This document shows, piece after piece, positions 5,277 through 31,477 of a DNA stretch of 32,000 bases; position 1 is the stretch's first letter, and each line of letters begins with the position of its first letter. The DNA is from Candidatus Jordarchaeales archaeon. Its GTDB lineage: Archaea; Asgardarchaeota; Jordiarchaeia; Jordiarchaeales; Freyrarchaeaceae. The position numbers and the translations under genes are program-made. The stretch lies in assembly GCA_038858525.1 (NCBI GenBank), contig JAWCFL010000001.1, positions 30,001-62,000 of the forward strand, written 5' to 3'. The notes below the pieces were generated by a model that saw only the letters and a program-made list of their open reading frames with translations, had not been told where the DNA came from and searched no databases.

Positions 5277-6728
5277 TTAACCCTTAACGACACCTATGGG
5301 CCTCAATTTAGCCACCAATGATGCTATTCCCACTTTGTGGGAAACATCAACTACTAGGTCGACGTCCTTGTATGCTTCAGGCGCCTCTTCACTCATGACG
5401 ACTACGCTAGCCGCTTCTACCAGGATTCCAGACTTTTGAAGCTCATTCTTGACTTTTTCACCCCAAAACCTCTTCTTCGCAGTCGCCCTGCTAAGCCTCC
5501 GGCCCGCGCCATGCGCCGTAGAGCCAAAGCTTAACTCCATGGATTCAGCTCTCCCTCTTAGAACATAACTGGCAGTACCCATAGTTCCAGGTATAAGAAC
5601 CGGCTGGCCGGTTTCTCTATATTTCTGAGGAATATCTGGATGGCCCGGTGGAAAAGCTCTAGTGGCACCTTTCCTATGAACGCATAGAACTTTTTCTTCA
5701 CCGTCAACGCGGTGTTTCTCGAACTTGGCAATGTTATGAGCCACGTCGTACACTATTCGGATTCCAAGATCTTCAGGTGAGGAAGAGAAAACCTTACCGA
5801 AAGATTCACGCACCCAATGCGTTATGCACTGTCTATTTGCCCATGCAAAGTTAGCGGCGGATGCCATTGCTGCAATATAACTTTCTCCTTCCTTACTTTT
5901 TCCAGGAACTGCAGCTAGCTCCCTGTCTGGAAGTGATAGCCCGTATTTTCCCATGGCATGCTCCATAATCTTCAAGTAGTCAGAGCAGATCTGATGGCCA
6001 AGACCGCGTGAACCAGTATGTATAAGAACTGCTATTTGTCCCTCGAATAAATCCATCCGCTTTGCTGCTTCTTCATCGTAAACATGCTCAACATATTGAA
6101 TTTCGAGGAAGTGGTTTCCACTGCCGAGCGTTCCAAGTTGAGGTGCCCCACGCTCCCTTGCCTTAGAGGATACTTTGCTAGCGTCAGCGTTCTTGAGGCA
6201 ACCTTCCTCCTCACAGTACAGTCTGTCTTCCTCCCACCCGAAGCCTTTCTCTATAGCCCAGTTAACACCAGATTCAAGAACATCATCTAGTTCAGAGGAA
6301 GACACCCTTATTTTTCCTTCTGAGCCGACGCCACTAGGAATTTCTCTAAATAGAATGCTTAGTAGCTCTTTGAGCTTTGGGATAACTTCGTTCTTTGACA
6401 GGTTTGTTCTAAGCAAGCGAACCCCGCAGTTTATATCGTAACCAACTCCGCCCGGAGAGACAACTCCGTCCTCTTCGAAATCGACGGCGGCGACTCCCCC
6501 AATAGGAAAACCATACCCTTGATGCGCATCAGGCAAGGCTATAGAGTTTTTTTGAATCCCTGGTAGGCATGCAACATTCATAGCTTGAACCAGTGTTTGG
6601 TCCTTCTTCATTCCATCAAGAAGCTCTTCATTTGCAAAGATCCTAGCTGGCACACGCATACATTTTTTCGCGTCCTTCGGTATCTCCCATATTAAATTAC
6701 TTATCTTTTTTACAGGAAGCTGAGACAA
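5277..6728 (-). CDS. rtcB: RtcB RNA 2',3'-cyclic phosphate/5'-OH ligase (tRNA splicing ligase)
   Basis: 483 aa, TTG start after AAGGAGGA; PDAHQGYGFPIG, GYDINCGVR, GSGNHFLE, HTGSRGLG, YDVAHN, HRKGATRAF, HGAGR, EEAPEAYK; no intein. Confidence 0.97.
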   Translation of the reverse strand: MSQLPVKKISNLIWEIPKDAKKCMRVPARIFANEELLDGMKKDQTLVQAMNVACLPGIQKNSIALPDAHQGYGFPIGGVAAVDFEEDGVVSPGGVGYDINCGVRLLRTNLSKNEVIPKLKELLSILFREIPSGVGSEGKIRVSSSELDDVLESGVNWAIEKGFGWEEDRLYCEEEGCLKNADASKVSSKARERGAPQLGTLGSGNHFLEIQYVEHVYDEEAAKRMDLFEGQIAVLIHTGSRGLGHQICSDYLKIMEHAMGKYGLSLPDRELAAVPGKSKEGESYIAAMASAANFAWANRQCITHWVRESFGKVFSSSPEDLGIRIVYDVAHNIAKFEKHRVDGEEKVLCVHRKGATRAFPPGHPDIPQKYRETGQPVLIPGTMGTASYVLRGRAESMELSFGSTAHGAGRRLSRATAKKRFWGEKVKNELQKSGILVEAASVVVMSEEAPEAYKDVDLVVDVSHKVGIASLVAKLRPIGVVKG

Positions 6729-6902
6729 GTCGTATTCCTCCTTAATTTCTATTGCTGAACATCAGTTCTTTACTTGCAGGCAGTACTTCACTTATAGAAT
6801 AACTCGGGGAGGGGGAAAGACTAAATGAAGATAGTTAAGCCTAGTTTCGCAGGACACATTTTAGAAGACAAGAATAAATAAAACTATCGCGTTTTTAATT
6901 CT

Positions 6903-7241
6903 TTAATATATCCGCCACGTGTGTCTGCAGATGGTGCACCTGAGGAAGGTTGTTGACGCTTCATCAGCTCTTCGTGTTTGAACTTGCCAGTAGTACGCTG
7001 TAGTATTGCCACATTTTGGACATATGGCTTTCATAGTAGGCATTGTTTTTAATTGCTGGTCATCCTCGAGTATCAACGTTTTATCCTTAGGTGAATGTTC
7101 TATCTCTCTCTTAACGACAAATCTTTCTTTGTTACTAAATATAGGCCTTTCTTGATGACCGCAACTTCTACATATAAGCCTAATTTCACCTTTCTCTTTT
7201 TCAGGGTACATTAACATACCACACTTAGGGCAGAAGTCCAA
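6903..7241 (-). CDS. tfs: Transcription elongation/cleavage factor TFS
   Basis: 112 aa, TTG start after AGGTGA; two Zn ribbons (CPKC..CRSC; CPKC..CTIC) and catalytic QTRRADE hairpin. Confidence 0.95.
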   Translation of the reverse strand: MDFCPKCGMLMYPEKEKGEIRLICRSCGHQERPIFSNKERFVVKREIEHSPKDKTLILEDDQQLKTMPTMKAICPKCGNTTAYYWQVQTRRADEASTTFLRCTICRHTWRIY

Positions 7242-7301
7242 ATAACAGTCACCTTTTTTTGATAGACGGTTAGGAAGTAATGGATTTTAATTTTTCCGTA
7301 T

Positions 7302-7697
7302 TCACTCCACTTCCTTACTTAATTCCTCTACAACCTTTTTGAGGAGGAGCGTGAAGCCCAGCACTAAGTTCTCAAAATTATCCTTGAGAGGAACTTTGGA
7401 GTTAATTAGGGAAGCTATTGAGATCGCGACATCTTTTATTTCTATTTTTCCTTTTAACCAAGCGTATCCTATTAGGGCTTCTGCAGCATCGCTTAACCCG
7501 TATTTATCCTGTCTTGATGGAAGGCGAGAACGTAATCCTGACGCTTTTAGCGCTGTTGCAAGTATAGACCCCGGAAGCTTTGTTTTCTTTACTTCGCCTG
7601 TAGCAGTAAATAGTGCTAAGCTATATATTAAGTTAGAGACCCCATCACCTATTCTTGCGTATTGTTTGTTTAGTAAGATCTTACTAAAGGATTGCAG
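7302..7697 (-). CDS. Archaeal RNase III-like (Mini-III-like) protein, absent from the ORF track; probable CTG start
   Basis: Manual translation, 131 aa: (M)QSFSKILLNKQYARIGDGVSNLIYSLALF...GLRSRLPSRQDKYGLSDAAEALIGYAWLKG...EVE*. GD and DxxEALIG motifs resemble the RNase III domain; lies between rpoL and tfs; GGGAGGG SD upstream; no in-frame ATG/GTG/TTG near the 5' end. Confidence 0.82.
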   Translation of the reverse strand: MQSFSKILLNKQYARIGDGVSNLIYSLALFTATGEVKKTKLPGSILATALKASGLRSRLPSRQDKYGLSDAAEALIGYAWLKGKIEIKDVAISIASLINSKVPLKDNFENLVLGFTLLLKKVVEELSKEVE

Positions 7698-7703
7698 CTT
7701 GGT

Positions 7704-8012
7704 TTACCCTCCCGTAGAGGACTTAACTTTACTTAATTCGCTAAAGAATAAATCGCTGATCTTAGTAAGAGTGTCTTTAAGTCGTTTAATAGCGTCTCTT
7801 AATGCATCTTCAGGGGGGACCCCTTGGTTTGTCGTTATGTAAATTTTCGGGTTCGAAAGAAGAGGGTGGTCTATTCTGTAACCTGCAAAAACGACGTTTT
7901 CATCGTCTAGCAAGGCTTTTTTTAATAACGTACATAAAGTGTGATCTTCCCCCTCTATTTCCAGCTCCAAGTGATTTTCTGTGCGTTTTGTCACGCGTAC
8001 CTTCAACCTCAT
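7704..8012 (-). CDS. rpoL: RNA polymerase subunit Rpo11 (RpoL)
   Basis: 102 aa; IEGEDHTLCTLLKKAL, FAGYRIDHPL signature. Confidence 0.95.
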   Translation of the reverse strand: MRLKVRVTKRTENHLELEIEGEDHTLCTLLKKALLDDENVVFAGYRIDHPLLSNPKIYITTNQGVPPEDALRDAIKRLKDTLTKISDLFFSELSKVKSSTGG

Positions 8013-8021
8013 TCACCTCTT

Positions 8022-8597
8022 CTAAAGCTTTGATTTGCCATAATCAATCGAGATTTTCCTTTTTTCCTTATTGCCGCATGTACTGCAAGTTAAGACCCCG
8101 TTGCTCTTTGGGTCCAGTGGAGAGCCGCATTTAGAGCAGAATGCCAAAACGACTCCTAAATTTTTACCGATAGTGGATAACTGTATGAGCTCGCTTCGAA
8201 CTTCGATTATACGTGCCTTCACTATGTCTCCGATCTTAAAAGCATCTGACGGCTTATCGATGAACTGGTTACTTATCTGAGATACGTGAATTACTCCTGA
8301 ATATGGCGATGAAAGAGTCTTTCCTCCAATCCTTGCGATGTCAACCATACTTAAAATTTTTCCCGTATTAACGACCATTCCCAAAACTAAGCTACCTTTC
8401 TTGATGAATGGATGGGATTCGAAGGGGATAACCTTAACGCGCCTCTCCACTTTGTCTATAAGCACTATTCCTGCATGTGAGGCAAAAATTATACCTCCCT
8501 CGTCATATGTTCCTTCATTCGGCGAAAATTCCTCTATAACACCCAACCAGTCGCCTGGCAAGACGAAGCTGCCAGTTTTAGGTCTCTCCGCGCTCAC
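8022..8597 (-). CDS. csl4: Exosome cap protein Csl4
   Basis: 191 aa, GTG start after AGGAGGTG; FVLPGDWLG N-terminus, S1 domain (AFKIGDIVKARII), C-terminal Zn ribbon CSKC..CSTC, EKRKIS. Confidence 0.94.
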   Translation of the reverse strand: MSAERPKTGSFVLPGDWLGVIEEFSPNEGTYDEGGIIFASHAGIVLIDKVERRVKVIPFESHPFIKKGSLVLGMVVNTGKILSMVDIARIGGKTLSSPYSGVIHVSQISNQFIDKPSDAFKIGDIVKARIIEVRSELIQLSTIGKNLGVVLAFCSKCGSPLDPKSNGVLTCSTCGNKEKRKISIDYGKSKL

Positions 8598-10365: not shown

Positions 10366-11607
10366 ATGAAGGTGAGTAGGATCAGGGATGTTAAAGCGCG
10401 AAGAATAATTGACTCAAGGGGAAACGCTACAATAGAAGTAATTGTTTATGCCGGAGATGTTGCCGTTAGTGCATGCGCCCCGTCAGGAGCAAGTGTTGGA
10501 CGACATGAGGCGCAAGCATTTCCTAAAGGAGGGGTAGAGGAGTCCATCAGGATGATTGAGGCATTATCACGTGTCCTGAAGGGAATGAGTGTTGAGGACC
10601 AGGAATCAGTAGATAAGGCGATCCGTGAGTTCGATGGTACAGGGAATCTTAGCAGGGTTGGCGGTAACGCGGCCATAGCTCTTTCGGTTGCTGTGGCAAA
10701 AGCTGCAGCAGCAATCAAAGGCGTTCCTCTTTGTAGATGCTTCAGCGACCGACTAGAAGCGCCATTCCCCTTAAGCAACATTATAGGAGGAGGGGTTCAC
10801 ACTAGAGGTGATTCTATAGACTTTCAAGAGTTTTTAGTTTTACCGGTTGGCGCTAAGAGTTTTGGTGAAGCGGCCAAAATAAACGTGATGGTTCACAGAG
10901 AAGTTTCCCGCATTTTAACGGAGCGATTCCCAAAATATGTGTTTGGGAGGAACGATGAGGGAGCCTGGGCGGCTCCATTAACCATAAGAGAGGCCCTTGA
11001 AGTCCTTTCCTCAGCAGTGCAGAGAGTTGAGGGCGAAGTGGGCGTTAAGATCCGGGTTGGAGTGGATGCCGCGGCTTCAAGCATCTGGAATGAGAAGAGG
11101 AATATGTATGTTTATAGAAAAGAGGGGTTCGAAAAGACGATTGAACAGCAGCTAGAATATGTTTCATCATTAATCGAGGACTACGGTGTGGCTTACTTTG
11201 AAGACCCGTTTAATGAGGAGGACTTTGACTCATTTGCAAAGTTGAAAGCGTCTCTGGGAAGAAAGTGTATAGTCACAGGAGACGACTTGACCGTGACTAA
11301 CAGAGAAAGAATAAGGAAGGCTGTGGAGAAGGACGCTATTAATGGAGTAATAATAAAGCCAAATCAGATAGGAACACTTACAGATACCAAGATGGCAGTT
11401 GAACTTGCTTCCTCAAGGAAAATAGTTCCAATAGCTTCTCATAGGTCGGGTGAAACATGTGACCCGGCATTAGCTCACATAGCGGTAGGTATGAGGTGCC
11501 CTATCATTAAAATAGGAATAATGGGAGGCGAAAGAATGGCAAAGATAAACGAGATCATAAGAATCGAAGAGGAACTGAGAATTAGGATGGCAAATCCTCC
11601 CATTTGA
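10366..11607 (+). CDS. eno: Enolase
   Basis: DSRGNATIEV, APSGASVG, NIIGGGVH, QEF, NDEGA, EDPF, GDDLTVTN, IKPNQIGT, SHRSGET. Real start likely ATG 10366 or GTG 10372 (GAGGTGA SD at 10360-10366) rather than 10303. Confidence 0.96.
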   Translation: MKVSRIRDVKARRIIDSRGNATIEVIVYAGDVAVSACAPSGASVGRHEAQAFPKGGVEESIRMIEALSRVLKGMSVEDQESVDKAIREFDGTGNLSRVGGNAAIALSVAVAKAAAAIKGVPLCRCFSDRLEAPFPLSNIIGGGVHTRGDSIDFQEFLVLPVGAKSFGEAAKINVMVHREVSRILTERFPKYVFGRNDEGAWAAPLTIREALEVLSSAVQRVEGEVGVKIRVGVDAAASSIWNEKRNMYVYRKEGFEKTIEQQLEYVSSLIEDYGVAYFEDPFNEEDFDSFAKLKASLGRKCIVTGDDLTVTNRERIRKAVEKDAINGVIIKPNQIGTLTDTKMAVELASSRKIVPIASHRSGETCDPALAHIAVGMRCPIIKIGIMGGERMAKINEIIRIEEELRIRMANPPI

Positions 11608-11608
11608 C

Positions 11609-12067
11609 ATGGAGGGATATAATATTTTCAATGAGATAGCGGAATTCATAGAAACAAGATATGCTAACGCACGTAAAATAATTGAAGTGGGGTTTGGAGG
11701 GCGGACAGAGACAGCGATTAAATTGGCGAAAAAAATTAATGCAGAGATAATTTTGACAGATGTAAATCCAGATTTCTTAAATACAGAGTTAAATGCAGAG
11801 CTTAAAGGTAGTATCAGAGTAGTTATAGATGACATATTCAATCCAAACTGGAAGTTATATGAAAAAGCGAATTTAATATATGCGATAAGGCCAAACCCTG
11901 AATTACAAAAACAGATAATTGATGTAGCCTCTAAATCAGGGGCGGATGCGCTTCTTAAAGTCCTAAGCGATGAATGGCCTGAAACAGAGAACATGAACAT
12001 GAAACATGAGGTAATTAACTATAAAGGGGTCATACTTCATTTTTTCGTAAACACTAAGCGCCATTAA
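11609..12067 (+). CDS. UPF0146 family protein
   Basis: 152 aa; KIIEVGFG, LTDVN, DDIFNPNWKLYEKANLIYAIRP.PEL pattern typical of archaeal UPF0146; starts one base after the eno stop. Confidence 0.8.
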   Translation: MEGYNIFNEIAEFIETRYANARKIIEVGFGGRTETAIKLAKKINAEIILTDVNPDFLNTELNAELKGSIRVVIDDIFNPNWKLYEKANLIYAIRPNPELQKQIIDVASKSGADALLKVLSDEWPETENMNMKHEVINYKGVILHFFVNTKRH

Positions 12068-12212
12068 AAATAAAGAAAGAAAAACAGAGAGTAAAGAAAC
12101 AATAGATGAAACAATAGATAGATAGTCGTTATAGAGTGAAAGTTTAACTACGAAAAGAGTTTTTCATTATGTAAAGAAAAATTTTACCTAATAAATATTA
12201 CGCAAAGAAGCC

Positions 12213-12220
12213 TTTATAAA
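12213..12220 (+). promoter_or_regulatory. TATA box of ppsA
   Basis: TTTATAAA preceded by purine-rich AAAGAAG (BRE-like), 47 nt before the TTG start; SD GGTGG at 12258-12262. Confidence 0.6.
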
Positions 12221-12266
12221 GAATCATAAAAAAACTCTTTAACCAAGGTTAAACGGTGGTGGCACT

Positions 12267-14692
12267 TTGTCAAGGAATGAGAAAATCGTGCTCTGGTTTG
12301 AGGAGATAGGAAAGGAGGACGTTGCGCTTGTAGGCGGGAAATGCGCAAACCTTGGGGAAATGATCACAAAGGCTAAGGTGCCTGTACCTCCGGGGTTTGC
12401 GGTGACGACGTATGCATATAAACGATTCATAAAGGAGACCAAGATAATGGACAAGATCTTCAGCAAACTCAGGGAAATTGACGTTAGAGATTTGAAGCAA
12501 CTGGAAGAGGCGTCTAGAGAAATAAGGAAGCTTATTGAGGGGACTAAGGTTCCAGAAGACATACAGTCAGCTATATTAAGTGCTTATGATGATTTAGCAA
12601 GAAGAGTTGGCAGAGAGCCGCTTGTAGCTGTCCGTTCTAGCGCGTCGGCAGAGGATAGAGACAGGGTCTCCCTCTCTTGCCGGGCGCTAGTTTTGCCGGG
12701 CAGCAAGATACTTTCCTGAATGTCTCTAAAGGTGAGCTTGTAGAGAGTGTAAGGCGTTGCTGGAGTAGCCTATTTACTCCTAGAGCGATAGCATATAGAG
12801 AGGAGAAGGGGTTTAGACATGAGGACGTGTCAATAGGGGTTGCCGTTCAGGAGATGGTTGACGCGAAAGCTGCGGGAGTTATGTTTAGCATACACCCAGT
12901 TACAGGGGATAAAAACAGAATTCTTATAGAGGCCAGCTGGGGACTTGGTGAGGCCGTAGTAAGTGGGGCTGTGACCCCTGACACATACATAGTAGATAAA
13001 AAAACTTTTGAAATTCTCGAAAAACAAATTGCAACTAAAAAAGTGGAGCATATAAGGGATCCTAAAACTGGAAAGACGATACATGTGGAGGTCCCGAAGG
13101 AGAGGCAAAACGTTCCAGCCTTAACGGATGAAGAAATAAAGGCGCTGGCGAGATACGCCCGCCAGATAGAGCAGCATTATGGTACGCCGCAGGACATGGA
13201 GTGGGCTATTGACAAAGACGGGAGGATATTTATACTCCAAGCAAGGCCAGAAACAGTTCACTCGACGGGATCAGCCATAGTGGAGCAACGATTAGTGGAG
13301 GAAAAGGAGGGGGAAGTGCTGGTGAGGGGATTGCCTGTTTCACCAGGAGTAGGGGCAGGGAAAGTCAAGGTAATCCTTAACGTTAAGGACATTGACAAGG
13401 TCAAAGAGGGGGATGTGCTTGTCACTAAGATGACTACACCTGACTGGGTTCCAGCCATGAAGAGGGCGGCAGCAATAGTTACGGATGAGGGAGGATACAC
13501 TTGTCATGCAGCTATAGTGTCACGCGAGCTTGGCGTCCCATGTGTTGTTGGGACTGGAAACGCGACAGAGGTGCTGGTGAATGTTGATGCTGTGACTGTT
13601 GATGGTGGAAAAGGATTAGTGTATCGCGGGATAATTAAAGCTGCTAAGGAGGAAGAATTTAGAGCTCCGGCTGTCGTTGAAGCTCAGATGATGATTCCGA
13701 CTGCTACGAAGATATACGTTAACCTCTCAATACCAGAAATCGCTGATAAGGTTGCAAGGGAGACAATGGCTGATGGAGTTGGGCTTCTCAGAGCGGAGCA
13801 CATGATGGTGACCATAGGCAAGCATCCTCGGAAGCTTATAGAGGAAGGTGGAGAAAACCTAATGGTTGAAAAATTCGCAGAGGGAATACGGAAAGTTGCA
13901 GAAGCGTTCTACCCGGGACCTGTAGTTTACAGGTTCTTAGACTTTAAGCCGGACGAGTTCCTAGCCTTAGAAGGAGGGGAAAAATACGAGCTAGAGGCGG
14001 GGCACGTTGGTCCAAATCCCATGATAGGATACAGAGGCCAGTACAGGTACGTTAAGGAGCCAGATATATTCAGGTTGGAGTGCAGAGCTGTAAAGAAGGT
14101 TAGGGACGAGTTTGGGCTGAAAAACGTGTGGGTTATGGTTCCCTTTGTCAGCACAGTAGAGGTCTTCAGAGAAGTAAAAAGGATAATGAAAGAAGAAGGG
14201 CTTGACAGGGAGAAGGATCCGGACTTTAAACTGTGGATAATGGTTGAGGTGCCAAGCAGCGTCTTTCTTATAGATAAGTTCTGCGAGGAGGGCATAGATG
14301 GGGTTTCCTTCGGCACTAACGACCTTACAATGCTGGTGCTAGGAGTTGATAGGAACGACGCAGCTGTCCAGGAACTCTACGACGAACGCAACTTAGCAGT
14401 TCTTAGAGCAATAGCGTACACGATAAAGATATGCGAAAAATATGGAGTCACTACATCCATATGTGGGCAAGCTCCCAGTGTTTACCCAGACTACTTAGAG
14501 TTTCTAGTGAGAATGGGCGCTACCTCGATAAGTGTAAATCCAGATGCTGTGAAGCGAACACGTGAGATGGTGGCAAGAATAGAGCAGAAGATCATGATGG
14601 AAAAAGCGCTGAACGTGAAGCCCAGAATCAAAATAGGAAAAAGTTTTCTTGAAGAGGTGGCGTTCTGGAAATTGATAGACGATGAGGCATGA
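12267..14692 (+). CDS. ppsA: Phosphoenolpyruvate synthase (pyruvate,water dikinase), two exons 12267-12656 and 12677-14692; 801 aa after splicing
   Basis: Exon 1 ends VAVRSSASAED, exon 2 begins LPGASFAGQQDTFLNV; joined they give the conserved RSSAxAEDLPxASFAGQ motif. Also GGKCANLGEM, QARPETV, phospho-His motif TCHAAIVSRELG, FGTNDLT, SICGQAPS. 2426-20 = 2406 nt = 802 codons. Confidence 0.95.
12657..12676 (+). other. Candidate mRNA intron with canonical bulge-helix-bulge motif
   Basis: AGAGACAGGGTCTCCCTCTC. Outer helix CGGCA(12646-50)/TGCCG(12678-82); central 4 bp GAGG(12651-54)/CCTC(12671-74); bulges ATA(12655-57) and TCT(12675-77); inner helix GAGAC/GTCTC with AGG loop. Cuts after the 2nd nt of each bulge fall exactly at the frame-restoring boundaries. 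Confidence 0.9.
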
Positions 14693-14702
14693 TGCGCCTA
14701 CT

Positions 14703-14734
14703 CTTTTTATCGCTTTTTTCCTTTGAAGTAATAA
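14703..14734 (+). terminator. Oligo-T terminator region after ppsA
   Basis: CTTTTTATCGCTTTTTTCCTTTG shortly after the ppsA stop; archaeal U-tract type. Confidence 0.5.
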
Positions 14735-14831
14735 ATCGAGAGGTAAGAGAGCTATCCGGGTTAGCGAAACACTTTAAAAAACATCGTGCTAATTTTCAAT
14801 TAGCCTTTAACCATATTAGGGGAGTGACATT

Positions 14832-16232: not shown

Positions 16233-16242
16233 AAGAGCATCT

Positions 16243-16285
16243 TCATTTTTACTATTTTCTTTTAATTTTACAGTTAATTCTTTAA
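16243..16285. terminator. T/A-rich region between convergent atpB and DC2-like gene
   Basis: Several T runs on + (TTTTTACTATTTTCTTTTAATTTT) right after the atpB stop. Confidence 0.45.
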
Positions 16286-17046: not shown

Positions 17047-17048
17047 TT

Positions 17049-21623: not shown

Positions 21624-21724
21624 TTTGATCTTTTCTTCTCTTTCTTACTTTCTTAAATTCAAAAAGTGATTTAAACCGCAATGTTCTGAATCAAATTAAA
21701 CTAACTCTGGAAGGGTGTCGAAGT

Positions 21725-22960: not shown

Positions 22961-23019
22961 ACGAAAAAGTTTACAAATAAAAAGAGGAGGTTTAAGTAAA
23001 AGATACGGGAGGGCGACTC

Positions 23020-24561
23020 TTGGAGTATTTAGTAGCGATAGATGCCGGAACAATAGGTTGCAGAACCATAATATTTGATGAAGAAGGAAGGGAGATCAGC
23101 AGAGCATATGAAGAGTACCCGAGCATATACCCTCACCCCACATGGGTTGAGCAAAGAGCGGACGACTGGTGGAGAGCAGCCTGTAACACTCTGAAAAGAT
23201 CACTTTCTCAAGCCAAGGTAAAAACTGACAGAGTGGCAGGGGTGAGCGTGACAAATCAGAGGGAAACCATAGTTCCAGTCAACGAAAATGGAACGCCATT
23301 AAGGAACGCTATAGTATGGCAGGACCGTAGAACGGTTAATGAGTGCGCAACAATAAAGGAAATAGTTGGAAGCGAGAAGATATATGAGATAGCCGGACTA
23401 ACTATAGACCCCTACTTCTCAGCTCCGAAAATTCTTTGGATAAAGAAAAATGAAGAAGAGATTTTCGAGAGGACCTACAAGTTCATGCTCGTCCATGACT
23501 ATCTACTGATGAAGTTAACAGGAGAGTTTGTAACTGATTGGTCTAACGCCTCAAGAACCATGCTTTTCGACATGAGAAATTTCGAGTGGTCTAAAGCAAT
23601 CTGTGACGCTCTAGAAATACCTTTAGAGAAGCTTCCAAGAGCGGAGCCACCCGCAAAGAAAATAGGGGAAATAACTAGGGAAGCCAGTGAAGCGACAGGA
23701 CTAGAGCCAGGAACACCCGTCATAACCGGAGGAGGAGACCAACAATGTGGTGCTGTAGGTATAGGAGTTGTTAGGGAGGGAAGGATAAAGGCTACAACAG
23801 GAACGGGAACCTTCATTCTTGCCTACTCTAACAAGCCCATGTGGGATAAAAACATGAGAGTGCTTTGTAGCTGCCATGCGGATCCAGGTAAATGGGTTAT
23901 CGAGGCAAGCATTTTTACGACAGGATCAGTATACAGATGGTTTAGAGACCAGTTAGGACACACAGAGAAAGCTTTAGCAGAGATACTAGGAGAGGACCCA
24001 TATAACATACTTAACAGGGAGGCTGAGGCTGCGCCGCCTGGCTCCGGCGGAATTCTCGTTTTGCCTCACTTCGTAGGGGCTGGAGCCCCATACTGGAATC
24101 CAAATTCTCGAGGAGTAATATTCGGACTAGCATTGGGACACACTAGGAAGCACTTGATAAGAGCGCTAATGGAAGGAGTATGTTTCGAGATAAGAAAAAA
24201 CATCGAAGTAATAAAACAGATGGGAATTACCGTTGACGAAATGCGAATCACTGGGGGAGCGACACGAAGCCAACTCTGGAACCAGATCCAAGCAGACGTC
24301 TACAACTTACCAGTCGTAATAGGAGCAGTTGAGGAAGCCACAGCGCTCGGCGCGGCGATACTAGCTGGAGTGGGGTCAGGCGTATACAAGTCCGTTTCGG
24401 ATGCAGCTGAAAAAGTAGTCCAGATAAAAGAAAGGAGAAATCCTGACCCTGCAAAGCGGAAAATGTACGATAAGCTTTACAGGTTACATTTAGAGCTATA
24501 TGATGCGCTAAACGAAAGAGGCCTCTTTGCGAAGCTGGCAGAGATAACAGAGCTAATATGA
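23020..24561 (+). CDS. glpK: Glycerol kinase (FGGY family)
   Basis: 513 aa; IDAGT, TNQRET, VWQDRRT, DPYFS, NASRTMLFD, GDQQ, GTGTF, GAPYW; GlpK glycerol-contact residues are retained; first gene before glpABC. Confidence 0.82.
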   Translation: MEYLVAIDAGTIGCRTIIFDEEGREISRAYEEYPSIYPHPTWVEQRADDWWRAACNTLKRSLSQAKVKTDRVAGVSVTNQRETIVPVNENGTPLRNAIVWQDRRTVNECATIKEIVGSEKIYEIAGLTIDPYFSAPKILWIKKNEEEIFERTYKFMLVHDYLLMKLTGEFVTDWSNASRTMLFDMRNFEWSKAICDALEIPLEKLPRAEPPAKKIGEITREASEATGLEPGTPVITGGGDQQCGAVGIGVVREGRIKATTGTGTFILAYSNKPMWDKNMRVLCSCHADPGKWVIEASIFTTGSVYRWFRDQLGHTEKALAEILGEDPYNILNREAEAAPPGSGGILVLPHFVGAGAPYWNPNSRGVIFGLALGHTRKHLIRALMEGVCFEIRKNIEVIKQMGITVDEMRITGGATRSQLWNQIQADVYNLPVVIGAVEEATALGAAILAGVGSGVYKSVSDAAEKVVQIKERRNPDPAKRKMYDKLYRLHLELYDALNERGLFAKLAEITELI

Positions 24562-24575
24562 AGAGTTGATGCAGG

Positions 24576-26069
24576 TTGAGGGTGGATGTGGCAGTAATAG
24601 GGGGAGGAGTTACTGGTCTAGGTGTTGCGAGAGACCTAGCTCAGCGGGGAGTAACGGTAGCTCTTTTCGAGAAGGGAGATCTAGCTTCAGGAACTAGTGG
24701 AAGGTCCCATGGGTTACTACATAGCGGAGCAAGGTATGCAGTGAAGGACCCAGTGTCAGCTAGCGAATGCGCGCAAGAAAACAGGATCCTGAAAAAGATA
24801 GCGTCCCATGTGATAGAAGACACGGGGGGAATGTTTGTAGCTGTTGAGGAAAGTGACTTAGAGTATGAAAGGGTATTCCTAGATGGGTGCAAAAAATCAG
24901 GGGTAAGAGTGGAGGAGCTCAGCATTAAGGAGAGCCTTAGCAGGGAGCCGTACTTAAACCCAAACGTAGTTGCGACTTATCTAGTAGATGACGCAGCAAT
25001 AGATCCCTTCAGGCTTGCGCTTGCAAACTTCCTTGACGCTAAAAGCAACAACGCTCAGATATTCACTTATACTCCAGTTAGACTTCTTGTTGAGCAAGGA
25101 GAGGTTACTGGTGTAAGACTGATTAAAAGCGGAGAAAACGTTCATGCGGACATTGTAGTTAACGCCACGGGTGCTTGGGCTGGAGAAGTGTGCAGGCAAG
25201 CTGGCATTAAACTCGAAGTCAAACCCAATAAAGGAACGCTTGTCGTCGTAAGTAAGAGAATAGTGAATACCGTTCTAAACAGGCTAAGGCCGCCCTCGGA
25301 TGGAGACATATTAGTGCCGCATCAGACAACTATGATTCTCGGAACAACTTCGACATACGTTAGAACCCCAGACAACCTTTTACCAACAAGGAAGGAAATA
25401 AAGCTAATTGTAATGGAGGAGGAGAAGCTTGTTCCGCTAGTTCGGCGGCTTCGGGTAATTAGAGCATTCTCGGGTGCACGCCCCCTCCTTGAAGGGGGAT
25501 CAGGAAGGGAAGCTGCGAGAACATTCCTAGTTATAGACCATGATGAGAGCGGCGTGAAAGGGTTGATCACGGTCACAGGGGGAAAACTTACAACATATAG
25601 ACTTATGGCTGAGAAAACCGCAGATTTAGTTTGCGCGAAGCTTGGAGTAAGAGCACCTTGCAGTACCGACAAGGAAGAGCTGCCGGAAGTGCCTGTGAAA
25701 AGCACGCTCGAACGTTACGAAGCACTAGAAGGGGAGCTTAGAGACGGAAAAGAAGTTGTTTGTGAGTGTGAAATGGTGACGCGCAGTGAAGTTGAGAAGG
25801 CATTCAATGTTCTGGCAGCTAGGACGCTGGGGGACGTTAAGAGGAGAACTAGGATGGGTATGGGGGAGTGCCAAGCGCAAATGTGCGCTTATAGAGTGGC
25901 TGATCTTATGGCGGAGTCGTTTGGATTCGGGGCTGATGAAGCTTTGAATATGTTGAGTGATTTCTTAAGGGAACAGTGGAAGATCAGTAGAGTTTTAGAG
26001 GGAAGCCAAAAGGCGCAAACAGAGTTTTTCAAAACAATGTATAGGTTGGCGGGTAGCCTTGACGGGTAA
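24576..26069 (+). CDS. glpA: Anaerobic glycerol-3-phosphate dehydrogenase subunit A
   Basis: 497 aa; FAD motif VIGGGVTG, GTSGRSHGLLHSGARYAV, RPPSDGDILVP, GGKLTTYRLMAE, C-terminal BFD-like VCECE..RTRMGMGECQ..C. Confidence 0.93.
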   Translation: MRVDVAVIGGGVTGLGVARDLAQRGVTVALFEKGDLASGTSGRSHGLLHSGARYAVKDPVSASECAQENRILKKIASHVIEDTGGMFVAVEESDLEYERVFLDGCKKSGVRVEELSIKESLSREPYLNPNVVATYLVDDAAIDPFRLALANFLDAKSNNAQIFTYTPVRLLVEQGEVTGVRLIKSGENVHADIVVNATGAWAGEVCRQAGIKLEVKPNKGTLVVVSKRIVNTVLNRLRPPSDGDILVPHQTTMILGTTSTYVRTPDNLLPTRKEIKLIVMEEEKLVPLVRRLRVIRAFSGARPLLEGGSGREAARTFLVIDHDESGVKGLITVTGGKLTTYRLMAEKTADLVCAKLGVRAPCSTDKEELPEVPVKSTLERYEALEGELRDGKEVVCECEMVTRSEVEKAFNVLAARTLGDVKRRTRMGMGECQAQMCAYRVADLMAESFGFGADEALNMLSDFLREQWKISRVLEGSQKAQTEFFKTMYRLAGSLDG

Positions 26070-27162
26070 AGTTGATGTATTGATCGTAGGAGCCGGCGTA
26101 GCGGGTTTGACCGCCGCGGAAATAATAGGTGAGGGCGGGTTTCAGGTTCTTGTTTTAGCATCCGGTTACGGTTGCAGCCAAGCGTCTTCTGGAACTATAG
26201 ACGTACTGGGGCGATACAAGGGTGAAAACGTCTTAGACGTTGAAGCTGCACTCGAGAAGTTCGTGGAGGAGAAACCGTGGCACATTTACGCTTTGGCGGG
26301 AAAGAAAACGGTTCTAAACGCACTATCTGATTTTCAATTTAGAAGCGGGGGACTTTATGCCGGAGGGGGAGGGCGGAACATGAAAATAATCACTCCGCTG
26401 GGAACTGTTAAGAGCACCTACCTCGTTCAGTTCACTATGCTCAATGCTTCTTTTGAATCACTCGCAGAGAGCAAGGTTATGCTGGTGGCTTTGCCAGGAT
26501 TGACAGGCTATGCTCCCCACATAATAGCGGGAAAAATGAGGAATAAAGGGATTGACGTGAAAATGACAAAATTGGACTTATTTGCCACAAGCCCCTTTCA
26601 GCTGGCGAGTAGTGTTGAATCTAACCCGGAAGTCTTAATTGAGAAGCTGAGAGAAGTAGGTGCAGGAGATCATGATTGGGTGGTTTTTCCACCGATTTTA
26701 GGACTCAGAAACGTAAAGGAAACATGGCAGGTAGTCGAGGAAAAACTGGGAACACGTGTAGTTGAGCTTCCATCTCTTCCACCCTCAGTTCCGGGAAAAA
26801 GATTATACTTCTTGCTAAGAAGACGGTGTGAAAAGGCGGGCGTCAGCGTGGTGCTTGGAAAAATAGTAAAAGGAATTAAGCTTATGGGTGGTAAAGTAAC
26901 GAGGGTCTTAACGAATGAAGGCAGCTATGTTCCCTCCGCTCTAATTCTATCAACAGGCTGGATGTTAGACCATGTTTTAAGGATCAGAGGAATGCCTCGG
27001 AGAGGCAAGAACGAGTACGGTATTAAGGTTGAAGGTGTGGAAAACCTTTTCTTTGCGCGAACCCTAGTCTCTCACGAGGAAAAAATAGGTCTAGGCGCCG
27101 CTATCACTGCAGGCTGGTTAGTGGGAAAGGCGGCGCTGGACTATTTAAGAGGGAGAAAGTAA
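26059..27162 (+). CDS. glpB: Anaerobic glycerol-3-phosphate dehydrogenase subunit B
   Basis: 367 aa; IVGAGVAG, SSGTIDVLG, ITPLGTVKST, ELPSLPPSVPGKRL; overlaps the glpA stop. Confidence 0.85.
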   Translation: MTGKVDVLIVGAGVAGLTAAEIIGEGGFQVLVLASGYGCSQASSGTIDVLGRYKGENVLDVEAALEKFVEEKPWHIYALAGKKTVLNALSDFQFRSGGLYAGGGGRNMKIITPLGTVKSTYLVQFTMLNASFESLAESKVMLVALPGLTGYAPHIIAGKMRNKGIDVKMTKLDLFATSPFQLASSVESNPEVLIEKLREVGAGDHDWVVFPPILGLRNVKETWQVVEEKLGTRVVELPSLPPSVPGKRLYFLLRRRCEKAGVSVVLGKIVKGIKLMGGKVTRVLTNEGSYVPSALILSTGWMLDHVLRIRGMPRRGKNEYGIKVEGVENLFFARTLVSHEEKIGLGAAITAGWLVGKAALDYLRGRK

Positions 27163-27163
27163 T

Positions 27164-28261
27164 TTGGAAGCTAAACTATTATACGAGACAGATAGATGCC
27201 TTCACTGCGGCTCCTGCTTATCTGTTTGTCCGTTAGTTAATGCTGGTGTTCCCGGTAACCCTAAGAAGGTCGGCGTGTATGCAGCTAGAGACATGAGGAA
27301 GGCGGATTACTTCACTACTACTCCTTTTAACTGTACTTTTTGTCTTGCGTGTGTTAATGCATGCCCTGTCAATCTTCCAACTCCAGAAGTTGTGAAACGT
27401 CTCAGAGGGAGGGTTAAACGTCCAGACTCAATAGAACAACTTGTGGAGAACGTCAAGTCAAGCGGGAACATTTTTGGAATGAGAAACGATGAAAGATGGA
27501 TATGGAGCATTGAACTAGACTTTCCTTTAGAGGAAAAAATAGACACTAAAGCTGAAGTCGGATACTTTGTAGGGTGTAATTCTGCTTTCGCTCCGTCACT
27601 CTCAGGAATACCTGTGGCAAATATTACTCTCCTTGAGAGGGCAAAAATTAACTACACGTTAATTTCCGGCGAGAAATGTTGCGGTATACCACTCGCGATG
27701 GCAGGGGAGGAAAGCGTGCTCGCAGAGATAGCGAAAAGCAACGTTGAAGAATACAAGAAGAGGGGGGTCAAAGTTCTGGTGACGTCTTGCCCAGCTTGTT
27801 TACGAGCATGGAGAGAAGTTTATCCCAGAATAGTGAAGGTGCCATTCAAGGTTCAGCACGCTACGCAGTTCATTTTTAGCTTGATAAAGAGGGGCAAAAT
27901 TAAACTTGCCAGAATAGACAGGAAAGTGACGTATCAAGATCCCTGCGAGCTGGCTAGAGGATGCGGCATAATAATAGAGCCTCGTCTTCTGATAAAGGAG
28001 ACGGGTGCATTGCTCTTGGAATTCAAAGAAAAAGGATTAGAGGCAGAGTGTTGTGGTGGGGGAGGTCTTTTGAGAGCGACTAATCCTCAGACGGCCACAC
28101 GGCTTGCTCTTTCAAAGCTACAAGAGGCAAAGTTGCTTGGATCTGAAGCGATAATAACTGCGTGTCCCGCGTGCAAGCAAAACCTCCTAAAAGCAGGAGG
28201 TGACATTCCCATATTGGACATAGGTGAGCTACTCCTCACCGCTCTTCCTTCTAACTCTTGA
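27164..28261 (+). CDS. glpC: GlpC/HdrD-like Fe-S subunit (two 4Fe-4S motifs plus CCG domains)
   Basis: 365 aa; CLHCGSCLSVCP, CTFCLACVNACP, EKCCG, TSCPAC, YQDPC, ECCGGGG, TACPAC; follows glpAB. Confidence 0.82.
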   Translation: MEAKLLYETDRCLHCGSCLSVCPLVNAGVPGNPKKVGVYAARDMRKADYFTTTPFNCTFCLACVNACPVNLPTPEVVKRLRGRVKRPDSIEQLVENVKSSGNIFGMRNDERWIWSIELDFPLEEKIDTKAEVGYFVGCNSAFAPSLSGIPVANITLLERAKINYTLISGEKCCGIPLAMAGEESVLAEIAKSNVEEYKKRGVKVLVTSCPACLRAWREVYPRIVKVPFKVQHATQFIFSLIKRGKIKLARIDRKVTYQDPCELARGCGIIIEPRLLIKETGALLLEFKEKGLEAECCGGGGLLRATNPQTATRLALSKLQEAKLLGSEAIITACPACKQNLLKAGGDIPILDIGELLLTALPSNS

Positions 28262-28651
28262 AAGCACTCTCTCAAAAACTCTCAACCCAACAGCGAGCTT
28301 AGCACTTCTAGCCATGAGACCAGCGATCATCATGACGTCAAATATTTCGTCGACAGATGCGCCCTCACGAAGCGCAGCCTCAACGTGAAAGTCCATGCAG
28401 TGTTCACATCCTAAAGCTACAGCCGCAGACAGTGCGACGAGCTCAGCCACTTTGCGAGTCAGAGCCTTCGGCCTCCTAAGCGTGAAAAGTGATAGAAGAG
28501 AATCCAGTACAAGCAGTTCAGGTCTGTTGCGTCCAATAGACTCTGATACAAAGGGCACGCGTCCATATTCCACGTGCATCTCACGGAAAAGCTCATCGAC
28601 CACAGCGTCCAAATTCCTAAATAAAGATTCAAGAAGAGACTTCAAACTCAA
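28229..28651 (-). CDS. Carboxymuconolactone decarboxylase / AhpD-like protein
   Basis: ELVALSAAVALGCEHCMDFHVEAAL..GAS.DEI with CxxC; start likely TTG 28651, 4 nt after GGTGA. Confidence 0.85.
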   Translation of the reverse strand: MSLKSLLESLFRNLDAVVDELFREMHVEYGRVPFVSESIGRNRPELLVLDSLLSLFTLRRPKALTRKVAELVALSAAVALGCEHCMDFHVEAALREGASVDEIFDVMMIAGLMARSAKLAVGLRVFERVLSRVRRKSGEE

Positions 28652-28788
28652 AATTTCACCCGGAAACGAGATCAACTAAACAAAATATATATTCGCTTTT
28701 CCCTTGAAACACGAGCTACATTCAAAATCAAAAAATAAATAAAGAGCGAGGAAACGTCAGTATGGCGAATGAACAGAAGAAGGAAAAA

Positions 28789-28796
28789 TTATAAGT
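28789..28796 (+). promoter_or_regulatory. TATA box upstream of tRNA-Leu(UAG)
   Basis: TTATAAGT preceded by purine-rich AAGGAAAAA, about 38 nt before the mature tRNA start. Confidence 0.5.
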
Positions 28797-28833
28797 TAGG
28801 GATAATCTTTGTTCAGTGAGAGAAGCGTACGGT

Positions 28834-28967
28834 GCGGGGGTTCCCTAGTTTGGCCAACTCTGAGACTGGCTAAAGGGGCCGGGCTTAGGTCCAGAGTGGT
28901 AAGAAACCCGGTGGTGTAGAATGTTAAGTAGCACAAACCTGCGTGGGTTCAAATCCCACCCCCCGCA
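28834..28967 (+). tRNA. tRNA-Leu(UAG) with three introns (28858-28873, 28890-28905, 28920-28936)
   Basis: Acceptor GCGGGGG/CCCCCGC+A, T-arm GTGGG-TTCAAAT-CCCAC, anticodon arm CCGGG-CTTAGGA-CCCGG; removing 16+16+17 nt gives an 85-nt class II tRNA; each intron has a 4-bp central helix with 3-nt bulges. Confidence 0.92.
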
Positions 28968-29029
28968 TCACTTGAGTGCTTTTGCAGTTTTGGAATTCCG
29001 TCTCTTCATTTAGAGGGAGGAATTTTTCT

Positions 29030-29821
29030 TTGGGAAAAGATGTATGGAAAGCCGAAGAAAGAGCAGATAAAGGAATATTAAAAGAGAAAGGATCTGAACT
29101 TTTTAAAACAGTTGAGGGTGTTCTCGACACAAGCACCTTAATGACCCTGTATGAACTGGAAAATAGAGGTTACTTCAGAAAACTTATGGGTGTGGTTTCA
29201 ACAGGGAAAGAGGCGAACGTTTATTGGGGGGTGGGTGACGGAGAGGAAGTTGCTGTTAAAGTTTACCGCACGGCGACGCTTGACTTCAAGAAGATTTGGG
29301 TTTACATAGCGGGCGACCCCCGTTTCTCTAGAATTAAAAAAAGTACGCGTGGAATGATGTTCATTTGGGCTGAAAAAGAGTTTAAAAATCTTAAGTTGGC
29401 ATATGAGGCGGAGGTAAGAGTGCCTAAGCCCATAGTTCAGCGCAAAAACGTTTTAGTGATGGAGTTTATAGGGGAAGACGGGGTGCCGGCTCCAAAAATA
29501 AAGGATGTTGAGCTTACCGCTCAAGAGCTGAGGGAGGCATTTGAAAAAGTGATCGATTACGTTGCTAAACTTTACAGAAAGGCGGAACTTATACATTCGG
29601 ACATAAGTGAGTATAACATTCTTTGGTGGGATGAGCCTGTGCTCATAGACCTCTCCCAAGCAGTAATGCTCAGCCATCCATTATCCCATGAGTTTCTCGT
29701 CAGAGACCTTAAAAATATATCAGTGTACTTTTCACGTGAAGGTGTAAGTGTACCATCCATAGAGGAATTATATTACCAAGTAACAGGAGAGGAGGCCCCT
29801 TGGAAGCAAGAGAGTACGTGA
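29030..29821 (+). CDS. rio1: RIO1 atypical Ser/Thr kinase
   Basis: STGKEANVY, AVKVYRT, WAEKEFKNL, LVMEFIG, IHSDISEYNIL, IDLSQAV; start likely TTG 29030 after GGGAGGA. Confidence 0.94.
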   Translation: MGKDVWKAEERADKGILKEKGSELFKTVEGVLDTSTLMTLYELENRGYFRKLMGVVSTGKEANVYWGVGDGEEVAVKVYRTATLDFKKIWVYIAGDPRFSRIKKSTRGMMFIWAEKEFKNLKLAYEAEVRVPKPIVQRKNVLVMEFIGEDGVPAPKIKDVELTAQELREAFEKVIDYVAKLYRKAELIHSDISEYNILWWDEPVLIDLSQAVMLSHPLSHEFLVRDLKNISVYFSREGVSVPSIEELYYQVTGEEAPWKQEST

Positions 29822-30357
29822 AGGTTCCTAAGGAACGCATAGCAGTAATAATAGGCAAAGATGGATGCGTTAAGAAAAGGCTGGAGCAAGAGACAAAAAC
29901 CAAAATAACAGTAGACAGCAACGAGGGAACTGTAACCATAGAAACAACAGAGGAGACAGAAGACCCTCTATCAATCTGGAGAGCAAGAGACATAGTAATT
30001 GCTATGGCGAGAGGGTTCAGTCCTGAAAGAGCCTTCCGCCTCCTGGACGAAGAACAAATGCTGGAAGTCATAGACTTAACAAAAATAGTAGGAGACTCCA
30101 GAAATACGCTTACAAGAATCAAAGGAAGGATAATAGGAGAAGAAGGGAAAAGCAGAAGAATAATAGAGGAAACCTGCGGAGCAGCCATCTCGGTATACGG
30201 ACATACGGTAAGCATAATAGGAGACAGCGACCAGCTTCAATGCGCAAAAAAAGCGATAATGATGCTCATCGAGGGCGCCCGTCACTCAACAGTCTATAGA
30301 GCAATACAAAGAATGGCTAGAGCCATAAAAATGAAGCGAATAATACCAACAACCTAG
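29800..30357 (+). CDS. Dim2/Pno1 (Krr1-like) KH-domain pre-rRNA processing protein
   Basis: 185 aa; RIAVIIGKDG, AMARGFSPERA, RIKGRIIGEEGKSR, ISVYGHTVSIIG, LIEGARHSTVY; usual neighbour of rio1. Confidence 0.93.
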   Translation: MEAREYVKVPKERIAVIIGKDGCVKKRLEQETKTKITVDSNEGTVTIETTEETEDPLSIWRARDIVIAMARGFSPERAFRLLDEEQMLEVIDLTKIVGDSRNTLTRIKGRIIGEEGKSRRIIEETCGAAISVYGHTVSIIGDSDQLQCAKKAIMMLIEGARHSTVYRAIQRMARAIKMKRIIPTT

Positions 30358-30543
30358 ACAACGTAAAAGTGCTTAAAACTGAATTTACATGAAGACGCAA
30401 AACAGCAGTAATTTAATGCGTTTATAACTTCATAAAAACTAGAAAACAAAGTGATAAAAGCTTAATTAAAAACAAAAGTTCAACAGTGAAATAGGAGAAA
30501 AGCCCTTATTTCGTTAGTCTTACAGGTGTTCATTAAGAACTGG

Positions 30544-31215
30544 CTAGATATTTAACTGGCGTAGTTTCTGTAGAAGGCTGGTTTTAATATACTTTAGCAA
30601 GACTAGGAAGTGCTTTAGGTAGTTTATCTTAAGTCTTCTTTTTCCATCAAGTCGAGGATGAACTGGAATGGGAACTTCGCGTATACGCGCACCCATCGTC
30701 GCCGCCTCCAGAAGAAGTGTTCCGCATGTGCTTCTGCTCTCAAGAGTCAGTCTTTGCGCAAGTTTTTTTCTAATGGCGATGAAGCCGCTTCCGGCGTCGT
30801 GAACTCTTACGAGGGGCCACACTAGTGCCGAAATTAGTAGTTCAGCTGGAGGGATGCTACTTCTGCGTCCGACAACGAGGTCTGCCTCGCCAGAAGCAAC
30901 CAGCCCAGCTAGCAACGGAATGTATGATGGGTCGTGCTGGCCGTCTCCATCTACACGGACGATGATGTCTCCCCTAGCTTCCCTGAAACCTGTTTTCAAG
31001 GCCTCGTTAATTCCTCTATTTTCTCCGTGACGGATAACTTTAGCACCAGTCTTCTCAGCAGCCTCGGCCGTTCCATCCCAGCTACCGTCATCGACGACAA
31101 TAACCTCACTAGCATACCGCAAACATCTCCTAACGACACAACTAATAGTTTTCACCTCATTAAAGGCAGGAATAATCACTGAAACATCATAACAACTGCC
31201 TAAAAATTTAAACAA
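30544..31215 (-). CDS. GT2 glycosyltransferase, polyprenol-phosphate mannosyl/glucosyltransferase (DPM1-like)
   Basis: 223 aa; VIIPAFNE, VVDDGSWDGT, DGDGQH, DLVVGRR, DAGSGF, IREVPI. Confidence 0.88.
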   Translation of the reverse strand: MFKFLGSCYDVSVIIPAFNEVKTISCVVRRCLRYASEVIVVDDGSWDGTAEAAEKTGAKVIRHGENRGINEALKTGFREARGDIIVRVDGDGQHDPSYIPLLAGLVASGEADLVVGRRSSIPPAELLISALVWPLVRVHDAGSGFIAIRKKLAQRLTLESRSTCGTLLLEAATMGARIREVPIPVHPRLDGKRRLKINYLKHFLVLLKYIKTSLLQKLRQLNI

Positions 31216-31350
31216 TTACGAACACCACCCGGAAACACTAAGTTCAAACGAAAAAACTATGCGTCCGATAAGACCGCTTCTAAAAAGATTTTTGAAAATC
31301 TTAGAAAGAAACATTGGGATTGATAAGTGGAGACGTTTGGTTAAAGGAAG

Positions 31351-31477
31351 TGGTGCAGGGGGTGGGATTTGAACCCACGCAGGCTTACGTTCCCAGTTTG
31401 GGTCTACGCCACGCGGGCCTCAGCCGCGTTCCTTTGACTTAGCCCATAGTATACACGTCTGGCTCGGACACCCCTGC
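31351..31477 (-). tRNA. tRNA-Leu(GAG) with two introns (31439-31458 D-loop; 31385-31403 variable loop) and encoded CCA
   Basis: Mature GCAGGGGTGTCCGAGCCAG|GTCAAAGGAACGCGGCTGAGGCCCGCGTGGCGTAG|GCCTGCGTGGGTTCAAATCCCACCCCCTGCA (85 nt) + CCA; central helices AGCC/GGCT and GCGT/ACGT with 3-nt bulges. Confidence 0.93.

Follow-up and report, generated by a model that had tools for sequence, protein, structure and literature searches.

We report here that ppsA, the gene for phosphoenolpyruvate (PEP) synthase, in an archaeon of the Candidatus Jordarchaeales is interrupted by a 20-nt insert with the structure of an archaeal bulge-helix-bulge (BHB) intron, and that the tRNA-splicing pathway of this archaeon very probably also processes mRNAs. 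The gene lies in a 32,000-nt stretch of DNA (G000:C1:30001-62000), called the window below, which belongs to a genome of 2.09 Mb in 63 contigs with an estimated completeness of 92.7%; positions given without a contig name are those of the window. A preliminary description of the window, made from its letters alone, had drawn a comparison with the Thermoproteales; the host is an Asgard archaeon of the Jordarchaeia and not a crenarchaeon, and the public sequencing runs that match the stretch come from hot springs. Assembled contigs of an environmental RNA library lack exactly the 20 nt, relatives throughout the class carry inserts at the same codon, and a total of nine introns in eight protein genes, ppsA included, was verified in the genome, which supports the view that mRNA splicing is routine in this organism.

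Structure of the ppsA intron

The ppsA gene is visible as two overlapping open reading frames (ORFs) on the forward strand, 12267–12719 and 12677–14692, which are in different frames. Exon 1 (12267–12656) has 130 codons, ends with ...VAVRSSASAED and matches positions 2–119 of the Pfam profile PPDK_N; if it is not spliced, its frame runs into a TGA at 12717–12719. Exon 2 (12677–14692) has 671 codons and a stop codon, and matches positions 115–317 of PPDK_N followed by the PEP-utilizers and PEP-utilizers_C families, so that the two halves carry contiguous profile coordinates. Between them lies a hBHBh' motif at 12645–12683 (H1=6 and H2=5 in the motif scan, no central mismatch). It consists of an outer helix of 6 bp with one G-U pair (12645–12650 with 12678–12683), a central helix of 4 bp (GAGG at 12651–12654 with CCTC at 12671–12674), two bulges of 3 nt (ATA at 12655–12657 and TCT at 12675–12677) and an inner helix of 5 bp (GAGAC at 12658–12662 with GTCTC at 12666–12670) closed by the loop AGG. 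The BHB substrates are cut between nucleotides 2 and 3 of the bulge, as stated for cbf5 (PMC2738675), and therefore an intron of 20 nt (AGAGACAGGGTCTCCCTCTC) is predicted at 12657–12676 on the forward strand, both cuts following nucleotide 2 of their bulge.

Removal of these 20 nt joins ...SSASAED to LPGASFAGQQDTFLNV (AED/LPGASFAGQQ), which is the uninterrupted motif of the intact Asgard PpsA proteins. The predicted cuts restore both the reading frame and the invariant motif AEDLPGASFAGQQ, in the window as well as in seven relatives. The spliced product has 801 amino acid residues, and the open frames of the intact homologues have 798–831. The folding energy of 12640–12690 calculated by RNAfold is -26.6 kcal/mol (z -2.77), and none of 200 shuffled sequences was as stable. 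Moreover, the structure score of the motif (14.3) is the highest of all the ORF-joining candidates in the genome, the best control of mirror geometry reaching 12.6. With its bulges, the flanking helices h and h', a functional product after removal and, at the level of contigs, its absence from RNA, the insert has the features of the BHB family. Other classes of intervening sequence were rejected. A group I or group II intron has a ribozyme core of hundreds of nucleotides, against 20 nt here, and Rfam gave no intron family in the window; an intein was rejected because the insert shifts the frame.

RNA and DNA evidence at ppsA

Contigs assembled from public runs were aligned to positions 12000–31900. 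In the metatranscriptome X14, a contig of 347 nt covers 12353–12719 and lacks exactly 12657–12676, and a second contig of the same library, from a related strain, reads ...GGCAGAGGAT joined directly to 12677. The DNA contigs of the runs X1 and X12, which come from two studies, retain the 20 nt. In X12 the intron has one substitution (G>A at 12664), which is located in the 3-nt hairpin loop and does not affect the BHB. Over the 20 kb, X14 gives uneven cover in which several bins are empty, whereas the cover of the DNA runs is flat, which fits an RNA origin of X14. The X14 contigs do not reach the tRNA introns described below, and the run X17, which is labelled RNA but is probably DNA, added nothing at ppsA. 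Thirteen independent DNA runs, which come from several studies, match the stretch word for word in a share of ≥0.96 of the words sampled.

Conservation of the intron in the Jordarchaeia

The ppsA frame is broken at this codon in all nine Jordarchaeia genomes with a ppsA match, and an insert at the same codon is present in all eight genomes that can be read there (three genera). The inserts are 18, 19, 20, 29 (four genomes) and 30 nt long. All eight form a BHB with bulges of 3 nt and the central helix GAGG/CCTC (CCCC in one genome, which makes one A-C mismatch), and the predicted cuts give the peptide ASAEDLPGASFAG in each of them. The inner helices, on the other hand, are unrelated in sequence (GAGAC/GTCTC, GAG/TTC, GGTT/AGCC and AAG/CTT). 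Across the class, the position and the fold of the intron are kept while its sequence and length are unrelated. The 18-nt insert is in frame but holds a TGA, and read-through is therefore impossible. In the genomes of the class the frame after the insert is intact over 671–685 residues, with a protein identity of 66–87% in the first 208 residues of exon 2. Outside the class, ppsA is uninterrupted in seven Asgard genomes, including those of Odin- and Baldrarchaeia. In the genome G001 of the same genus (the metagenome-assembled genome QC4, locus L001; G001:C46, about 10660–10700), about 36 N stand exactly at the place of the intron, as a gap in the assembly or as bases that were withheld, and two genomes (G003 and G005, 83% and 99% complete) gave no ppsA match with this query.

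Further introns in protein genes

The whole genome was scanned for BHB motifs that, when taken out, bring two open frames together into one. The strict hBHBh' scan gave 28,080 raw motifs, and 577 of them join ORFs; most of these are junctions of adjacent genes, which a filter on codon usage failed to clear. Enrichment over a control with mirror-image bulges appeared only at the top structure scores (5 against 1 at scores ≥12). Candidates with a familiar peptide motif after splicing were confirmed through Pfam profile coordinates that continue from one side of the splice to the other. In this way, introns were verified in cbf5 (C1:177182-177211, 30 nt; the DKCLD motif in exon 1 and TruB_N from position 17 in exon 2), kae1/tsaD (C1:187329-187342, 14 nt; TsaD 2–61, then 64–264), pcm (C1:145116-145146, 31 nt; PCMT 2–59, then 61–208), the gene for EF-2 (C4:81118-81146, 29 nt; GTP_EFTU 2–80, then 82–187), gatE (C2:68773-68802, 30 nt; GatB_N 2–37, then 47–276) and a gene for a FAD-binding oxidase (C13:45688-45711, 24 nt; FAD_binding_4 1–80, then 93–139). 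In addition, the gene for aIF2-gamma has two introns (C1:191171-191200, 30 nt, and C1:191124-191154, 31 nt), which flank a micro-exon of 16 nt. Removal of both gives GTAGHVDHGKTTLVQAL, in which the P-loop GHVDHGKT is restored, as read from the sequence; the second of the two has no outer helix, and a search for two-intron motifs missed the pair. The number of nine introns is a lower bound, since the filters drop in-frame introns without a stop codon, small exons and weak outer helices.

The preliminary description had supposed a genome-wide system of micro-introns in mRNAs, and the eight further introns in seven genes, found by Pfam continuity or restoration of the P-loop, bear this out. Its additional proposal that such introns spread from tRNAs into mRNAs gained no support, the introns sharing no sequence beyond the letters of the bulges. 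Most of the further introns start with A and end with AA (with A in third place of the 5' bulge and AA as the opening two letters of the 3' bulge), and the tRNA introns of the window are alike in this; the pattern may be a bulge preference of the splicing endonuclease (EndA) of this organism. Three candidates were rejected, as Pfam assigned their halves to two genes each: C11:1123-1156 (cdc6 and a helix-turn-helix gene), C3:32711-32730 (a thiolase gene and a DUF35-type OB gene) and C12:57737-57764 (an oxidoreductase gene and a thiolase gene). Four other sites (C3:105835-105865, C45:11319-11346, C25:8156-8184 and C8:18911-18930) have good BHB hairpins and halves whose Pfam matches are absent or uninformative, and are listed as candidate introns, as is the unconfirmed C58:6007-6023.

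The cbf5 intron of this genome (locus L096, forward strand) splits the codon of the catalytic Asp between its first and second letter (GHAGTL/D/PKV). The same position in the Asp codon has been reported for the crenarchaeal cbf5 introns (Yokobori 2009, PMC2738675). Each of the 11 Jordarchaeia genomes has a truncated cbf5 frame, as have two genomes from a different Asgard family (G028 and G038), whereas most of the other Asgard genomes have an open cbf5 frame of about 330–360 residues. This intron is either an ancient one that is shared or the result of recurrent insertion.

Genes for the splicing enzymes

The family of the EndA catalytic domain matches two paralogous genes in the genome. The product of one, EndA alpha (191 aa), is most similar to the catalytic alpha subunit of the Aeropyrum pernix enzyme, with which it aligns over its whole length (3P1Z_B; 168 bits, 1.6e-48), and has the catalytic Tyr, His and Lys (VYE...DHAP...VRKK, with GPGIDHAP). 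The other, EndA beta (198 aa), aligns to the EndA of M. jannaschii, with the catalytic His replaced (EHS to EAA). The segment IRKPKTPQFNKP of EndA alpha aligns without gaps to VEKPRGADFEGP of A. pernix, and its K falls on K44 of the specificity loop, as counted on the alignment. From these sequences the enzyme is predicted to have the (alpha-beta)2 architecture with the L1, or Crenarchaea-specific, loop. Such (alpha-beta)2 enzymes with the L1 loop have been described for Asgard archaea and tied to the cleavage of relaxed and non-canonical substrates (Kaneta et al. 2018, PMC5829648), and the same paper documents what K44 does and that L1 occurs in Asgard archaea. A permissive endonuclease, as had been expected from the window, agrees with this result: the enzyme is not of the strict homomeric type, being encoded by a catalytic alpha and a beta with its His replaced. 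The idea that a permissive heteromeric EndA allows introns in pre-mRNAs is not new and was put forward for cbf5 (Yokobori 2009, PMC2738675, where the same group repeats a proposal that it had made before).

The ligase gene rtcB is located in the window at 5277–6728 on the reverse strand, where it had been placed before. It encodes 483 residues, matches Pfam PF01139 (RtcB) over the entire profile (1–426 of 426, E 1.6e-180) and is the single match in the whole genome, that is, a single-copy gene. RtcB is presumably the enzyme that joins the exons. Its closeness to the introns had been called possibly coincidental, and indeed nothing was found that ties the position of rtcB to them.

Two tRNA-Leu genes with five introns

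Neither ARAGORN nor Rfam at the gathering score found a tRNA in the window. In a permissive Rfam run, two genes emerged as weak 'tmRNA' matches only, with the ends of acceptor and T-arm 137 nt apart at 28834–28970 (forward strand) and 127 nt apart at 31351–31477 (reverse strand). From the cloverleaf, three inserts were derived for the first gene and two for the other. With these taken out, clean class-II cloverleaves of tRNA-Leu(UAG) and tRNA-Leu(GAG) are called by ARAGORN, in both of which the D, anticodon and T arms and the long variable arm are normal, whereas the precursors remain uncalled. The gene of tRNA-Leu(UAG) (28834–28967, forward strand) is 134 nt long for a tRNA of 85 nt. Its inserts are located in the D-loop (28853–28868, 16 nt, with boundaries that slide by 2), at position 37/38 (28890–28905, 16 nt, strict hBHBh' with H1=6 and H2=3) and in the variable arm (28920–28936, 17 nt, central helix GTGT/GCAC). 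The gene of tRNA-Leu(GAG) (31351–31477, reverse strand) is 127 nt long for a product of 88 nt (85 nt and the encoded CCA), with introns at position 18/19 of the D-loop (31439–31458, 20 nt, central helix AGCC/GGCT and an inner helix of 4 bp) and in the variable arm (31385–31403, 19 nt, central helix GCGT/ACGT). Four of the five inserts have a central helix of 4 bp between two bulges of 3 nt in the exact register of the cuts, for which we estimate a chance of about 2% per site and register. Except for the intron at position 37/38, the outer helix is of 1 bp only, which is the relaxed form. No further tRNA T-arm and no further ORF-joining BHB was found in the window. The count of five tRNA introns and one mRNA intron of 16–20 nt given in the preliminary description is exact in both number and size.

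This part of the finding is already published for the class. The tRNA genes of Freyrarchaeaceae and Jordiarchaeaceae have about two inserts each, many of them are missed by annotation programs, and the inserts of the D-arm are often without a canonical motif (bioRxiv 10.64898/2026.10.13.758758; Valentin-Alvarado 2024, PMC11291895); mRNA introns are not mentioned in these two reports. As in the Thermoproteales (Sugahara 2008) and in the tRNAs of Freyr-, Jordi- and Atabeyarchaeia, there are two or three introns per gene, they are located in the D-loop, the anticodon loop and the variable arm, and they are 16–20 nt long and mostly at BHB motifs, so the tRNA part of the window shows no difference from the published tRNA introns of the class. 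With the Rfam tRNA model, only five tRNA genes were found in this 92.7%-complete genome. Most tRNAs of this lineage will escape standard annotation.

Proposed mechanism and alternative explanations

We propose that ppsA is transcribed with the 20-nt insert, and that the exon GAGG, in the codons for Glu-Asp, would pair with the CCTC of the insert and, together with the exon-exon outer helix and the hairpin of the intron, form a canonical BHB. EndA and RtcB, the enzymes inferred from the gene content to act on the mRNA, would then remove the insert, RtcB joining the ends with 2',3'-cyclic phosphate and 5'-OH. The result would be an mRNA for the full-length PEP synthase of 801 residues, while the unspliced RNA would yield a stub of 150 residues only. 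The same pathway would act on the two tRNA-Leu genes, where it would excise all five introns, and on at least seven other protein genes with short introns. We infer that a permissive endonuclease tolerates the introns as passengers and that they are not regulators.

Several points weigh against this proposal. The RNA evidence consists of assembled contigs of an environmental library, not of raw reads. Besides the missing insert, there are four differences between the main X14 contig and the window, and the contig therefore comes from another strain, whose DNA was not seen; X14 also shows a 21-nt gap in a tandem repeat at 16698, so strain indels do occur there. Motifs that join ORFs are equally common in the mirror-image control (198 against 212; 54 against 54), and therefore a motif together with the fusion of two ORFs is no evidence without homology, and no census can be based on the motif. 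Several high-scoring candidates proved to be plain adjacent genes, and the tRNA insert at 28853–28868 showed no BHB in its five equivalent registers, either in the scan or by hand. Furthermore, neither cleavage by an EndA nor ligation by an RtcB of the Asgard archaea is known to have been assayed.

In view of the strain difference and the indel at 16698, a small probability is kept for an intron-less DNA allele of ppsA in the strains of the RNA library, the gene being a pseudogene in the sequenced genomes, all the more as DNA can contaminate RNA libraries. Such a polymorphism is nevertheless unlikely. The insert and an intact frame of 671–685 residues are kept in all eight readable genomes of the class, over three genera and down to 66% protein identity, and a pseudogene is improbable because a frame of about 670 residues and an RNA fold are both kept over such divergence. 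Moreover, the joint is found in two different RNA contigs and in no DNA contig aligned, the missing bases match the BHB cut sites to the nucleotide, and ppsA has one match in this genome. The 20 nt could also stay in the mRNA and be passed by programmed frameshifting or translational bypass, as in gene 60 of T4, or the two ORFs could be translated into separate polypeptides, the second one from the TTG at 12677. The overlap of the ORFs in different frames and the TTG, a possible start codon, at the opening of exon 2 would suit these ideas, and the cbf5 introns were once taken for frameshift sites (PMC2738675). We regard them as very improbable, however, as the RNA-library contigs lack exactly the 20 nt, the inserts of the relatives (18, 19, 20, 29 and 30 nt) would need different shifts and yet all keep one RNA fold, and the break falls in the middle of a motif that is invariant within a single domain; no pair of take-off and landing codons and no slippery site is evident in the sequence, in which no dedicated search for them was made. 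Finally, the genome is a bin of 63 contigs, and the insert could in principle be an assembly or sequencing artefact of one metagenome. We count this as already refuted and its probability as negligible: the stretch is contained in the 13 independent DNA runs mentioned above, two of which keep the insert when aligned, and this codon is likewise interrupted by inserts in other assemblies from the class. Splicing by the tRNA pathway is thus the explanation that we prefer for ppsA.

Comparison with known mRNA splicing systems

The closest known system is the BHB intron in the cbf5 pre-mRNA of Desulfurococcales and Sulfolobales (Watanabe 2002; Yoshinari 2006; Yokobori 2009, PMC2738675). Like the ppsA intron, it has tens of nucleotides, lies inside a protein gene at a BHB and is cut between nucleotides 2 and 3 of the bulge; it likewise occurs in a host with heteromeric EndA, disrupts an essential motif, so that removal is needed, and varies in its interior while the motif is kept. 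The ppsA intron differs in that it interrupts a gene of central metabolism, in an Asgard phylum, and does not stand alone, since eight genes with at least nine such introns were verified here. According to PMC2738675, splicing has been confirmed for no archaeal protein gene besides cbf5, and our literature search found no later report of pre-mRNA splicing, either in Asgard archaea or in ppsA. Absent from the literature searched are the intron of ppsA, its conservation throughout the class, the intron-less RNA contigs and the wide occurrence of mRNA introns in the genome of an Asgard archaeon.

Splicing of the HAC1/XBP1 mRNA in eukaryotes is a more distant likeness. There, IRE1 cuts in RNA loops and leaves ends with 2',3'-cyclic phosphate, a short intron is removed, the frame changes, and RtcB ligates the exons in metazoa. 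It differs in that the enzyme is IRE1 and not EndA/TSEN, that the recognition motif is another one, and that HAC1/XBP1 splicing is regulated by stress. The role of RtcB in XBP-1 splicing is described in PMC8718801.

Other genes in the window

Among the long ORFs of the window, Pfam further identified fttA, cdc6, a gene of the eRF1 family, the genes for TFS, csl4, dph2 and enolase, and those for the B subunit of the A-ATPase, a topoisomerase, glycerol kinase, subunits of glycerol-3-phosphate dehydrogenase and RIO1. The ppsA gene is the single one visibly split among the long ORFs with Pfam annotation. The ORFs of the forward strand at 7339–8134 were rejected as shadows of genes on the reverse strand, which by their sequence may be a rpoL-like gene and possibly a RNase III-like gene. 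An ORF of 809 residues (19194–21623, reverse strand) has no Pfam family at E values up to 0.001. A gene for a small membrane protein (16342–16812, reverse strand) contains a tandem duplication of 21 nt at 16698–16718 (seven residues, a KTVTK-type repeat). The gap at this place in the X14 contig corresponds to one copy of the repeat; it is a strain polymorphism and was rejected as an intron.

Implications for the Jordarchaeia

In a wider sense, we think it somewhat more probable than its opposite that the Jordarchaeia, and probably a second Asgard family, keep a standing population, probably of dozens, of introns in protein genes that depend on EndA and RtcB, including those for EF-2, aIF2-gamma, gatE, kae1 and cbf5, so that the expression of much of the informational machinery would depend on mRNA splicing, and that the cbf5 intron either predates the split of TACK and Asgard archaea or arises recurrently at a BHB-prone site. 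If this is true, a prokaryote close to the eukaryotes relies on mRNA splicing, and its unspliced transcripts would have to be either kept from the ribosomes or tolerated. In the Asgard archaeon described here, such splicing is needed by a gene of metabolism and by several genes of the core of translation. For annotation, gene callers will report such spliced genes as frameshifted, truncated or missing, which distorts metabolic reconstructions and estimates of completeness. For cell biology, it raises a testable question, namely how a cell with coupled transcription and translation handles mRNAs that need prior splicing. A descent of the spliceosomal introns from the introns described here is not implied. 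The same sites in 11 genomes, occupied by introns of differing sequence, provide a natural data set for the origin and spread of protein-spliced introns near the root of the eukaryotes.

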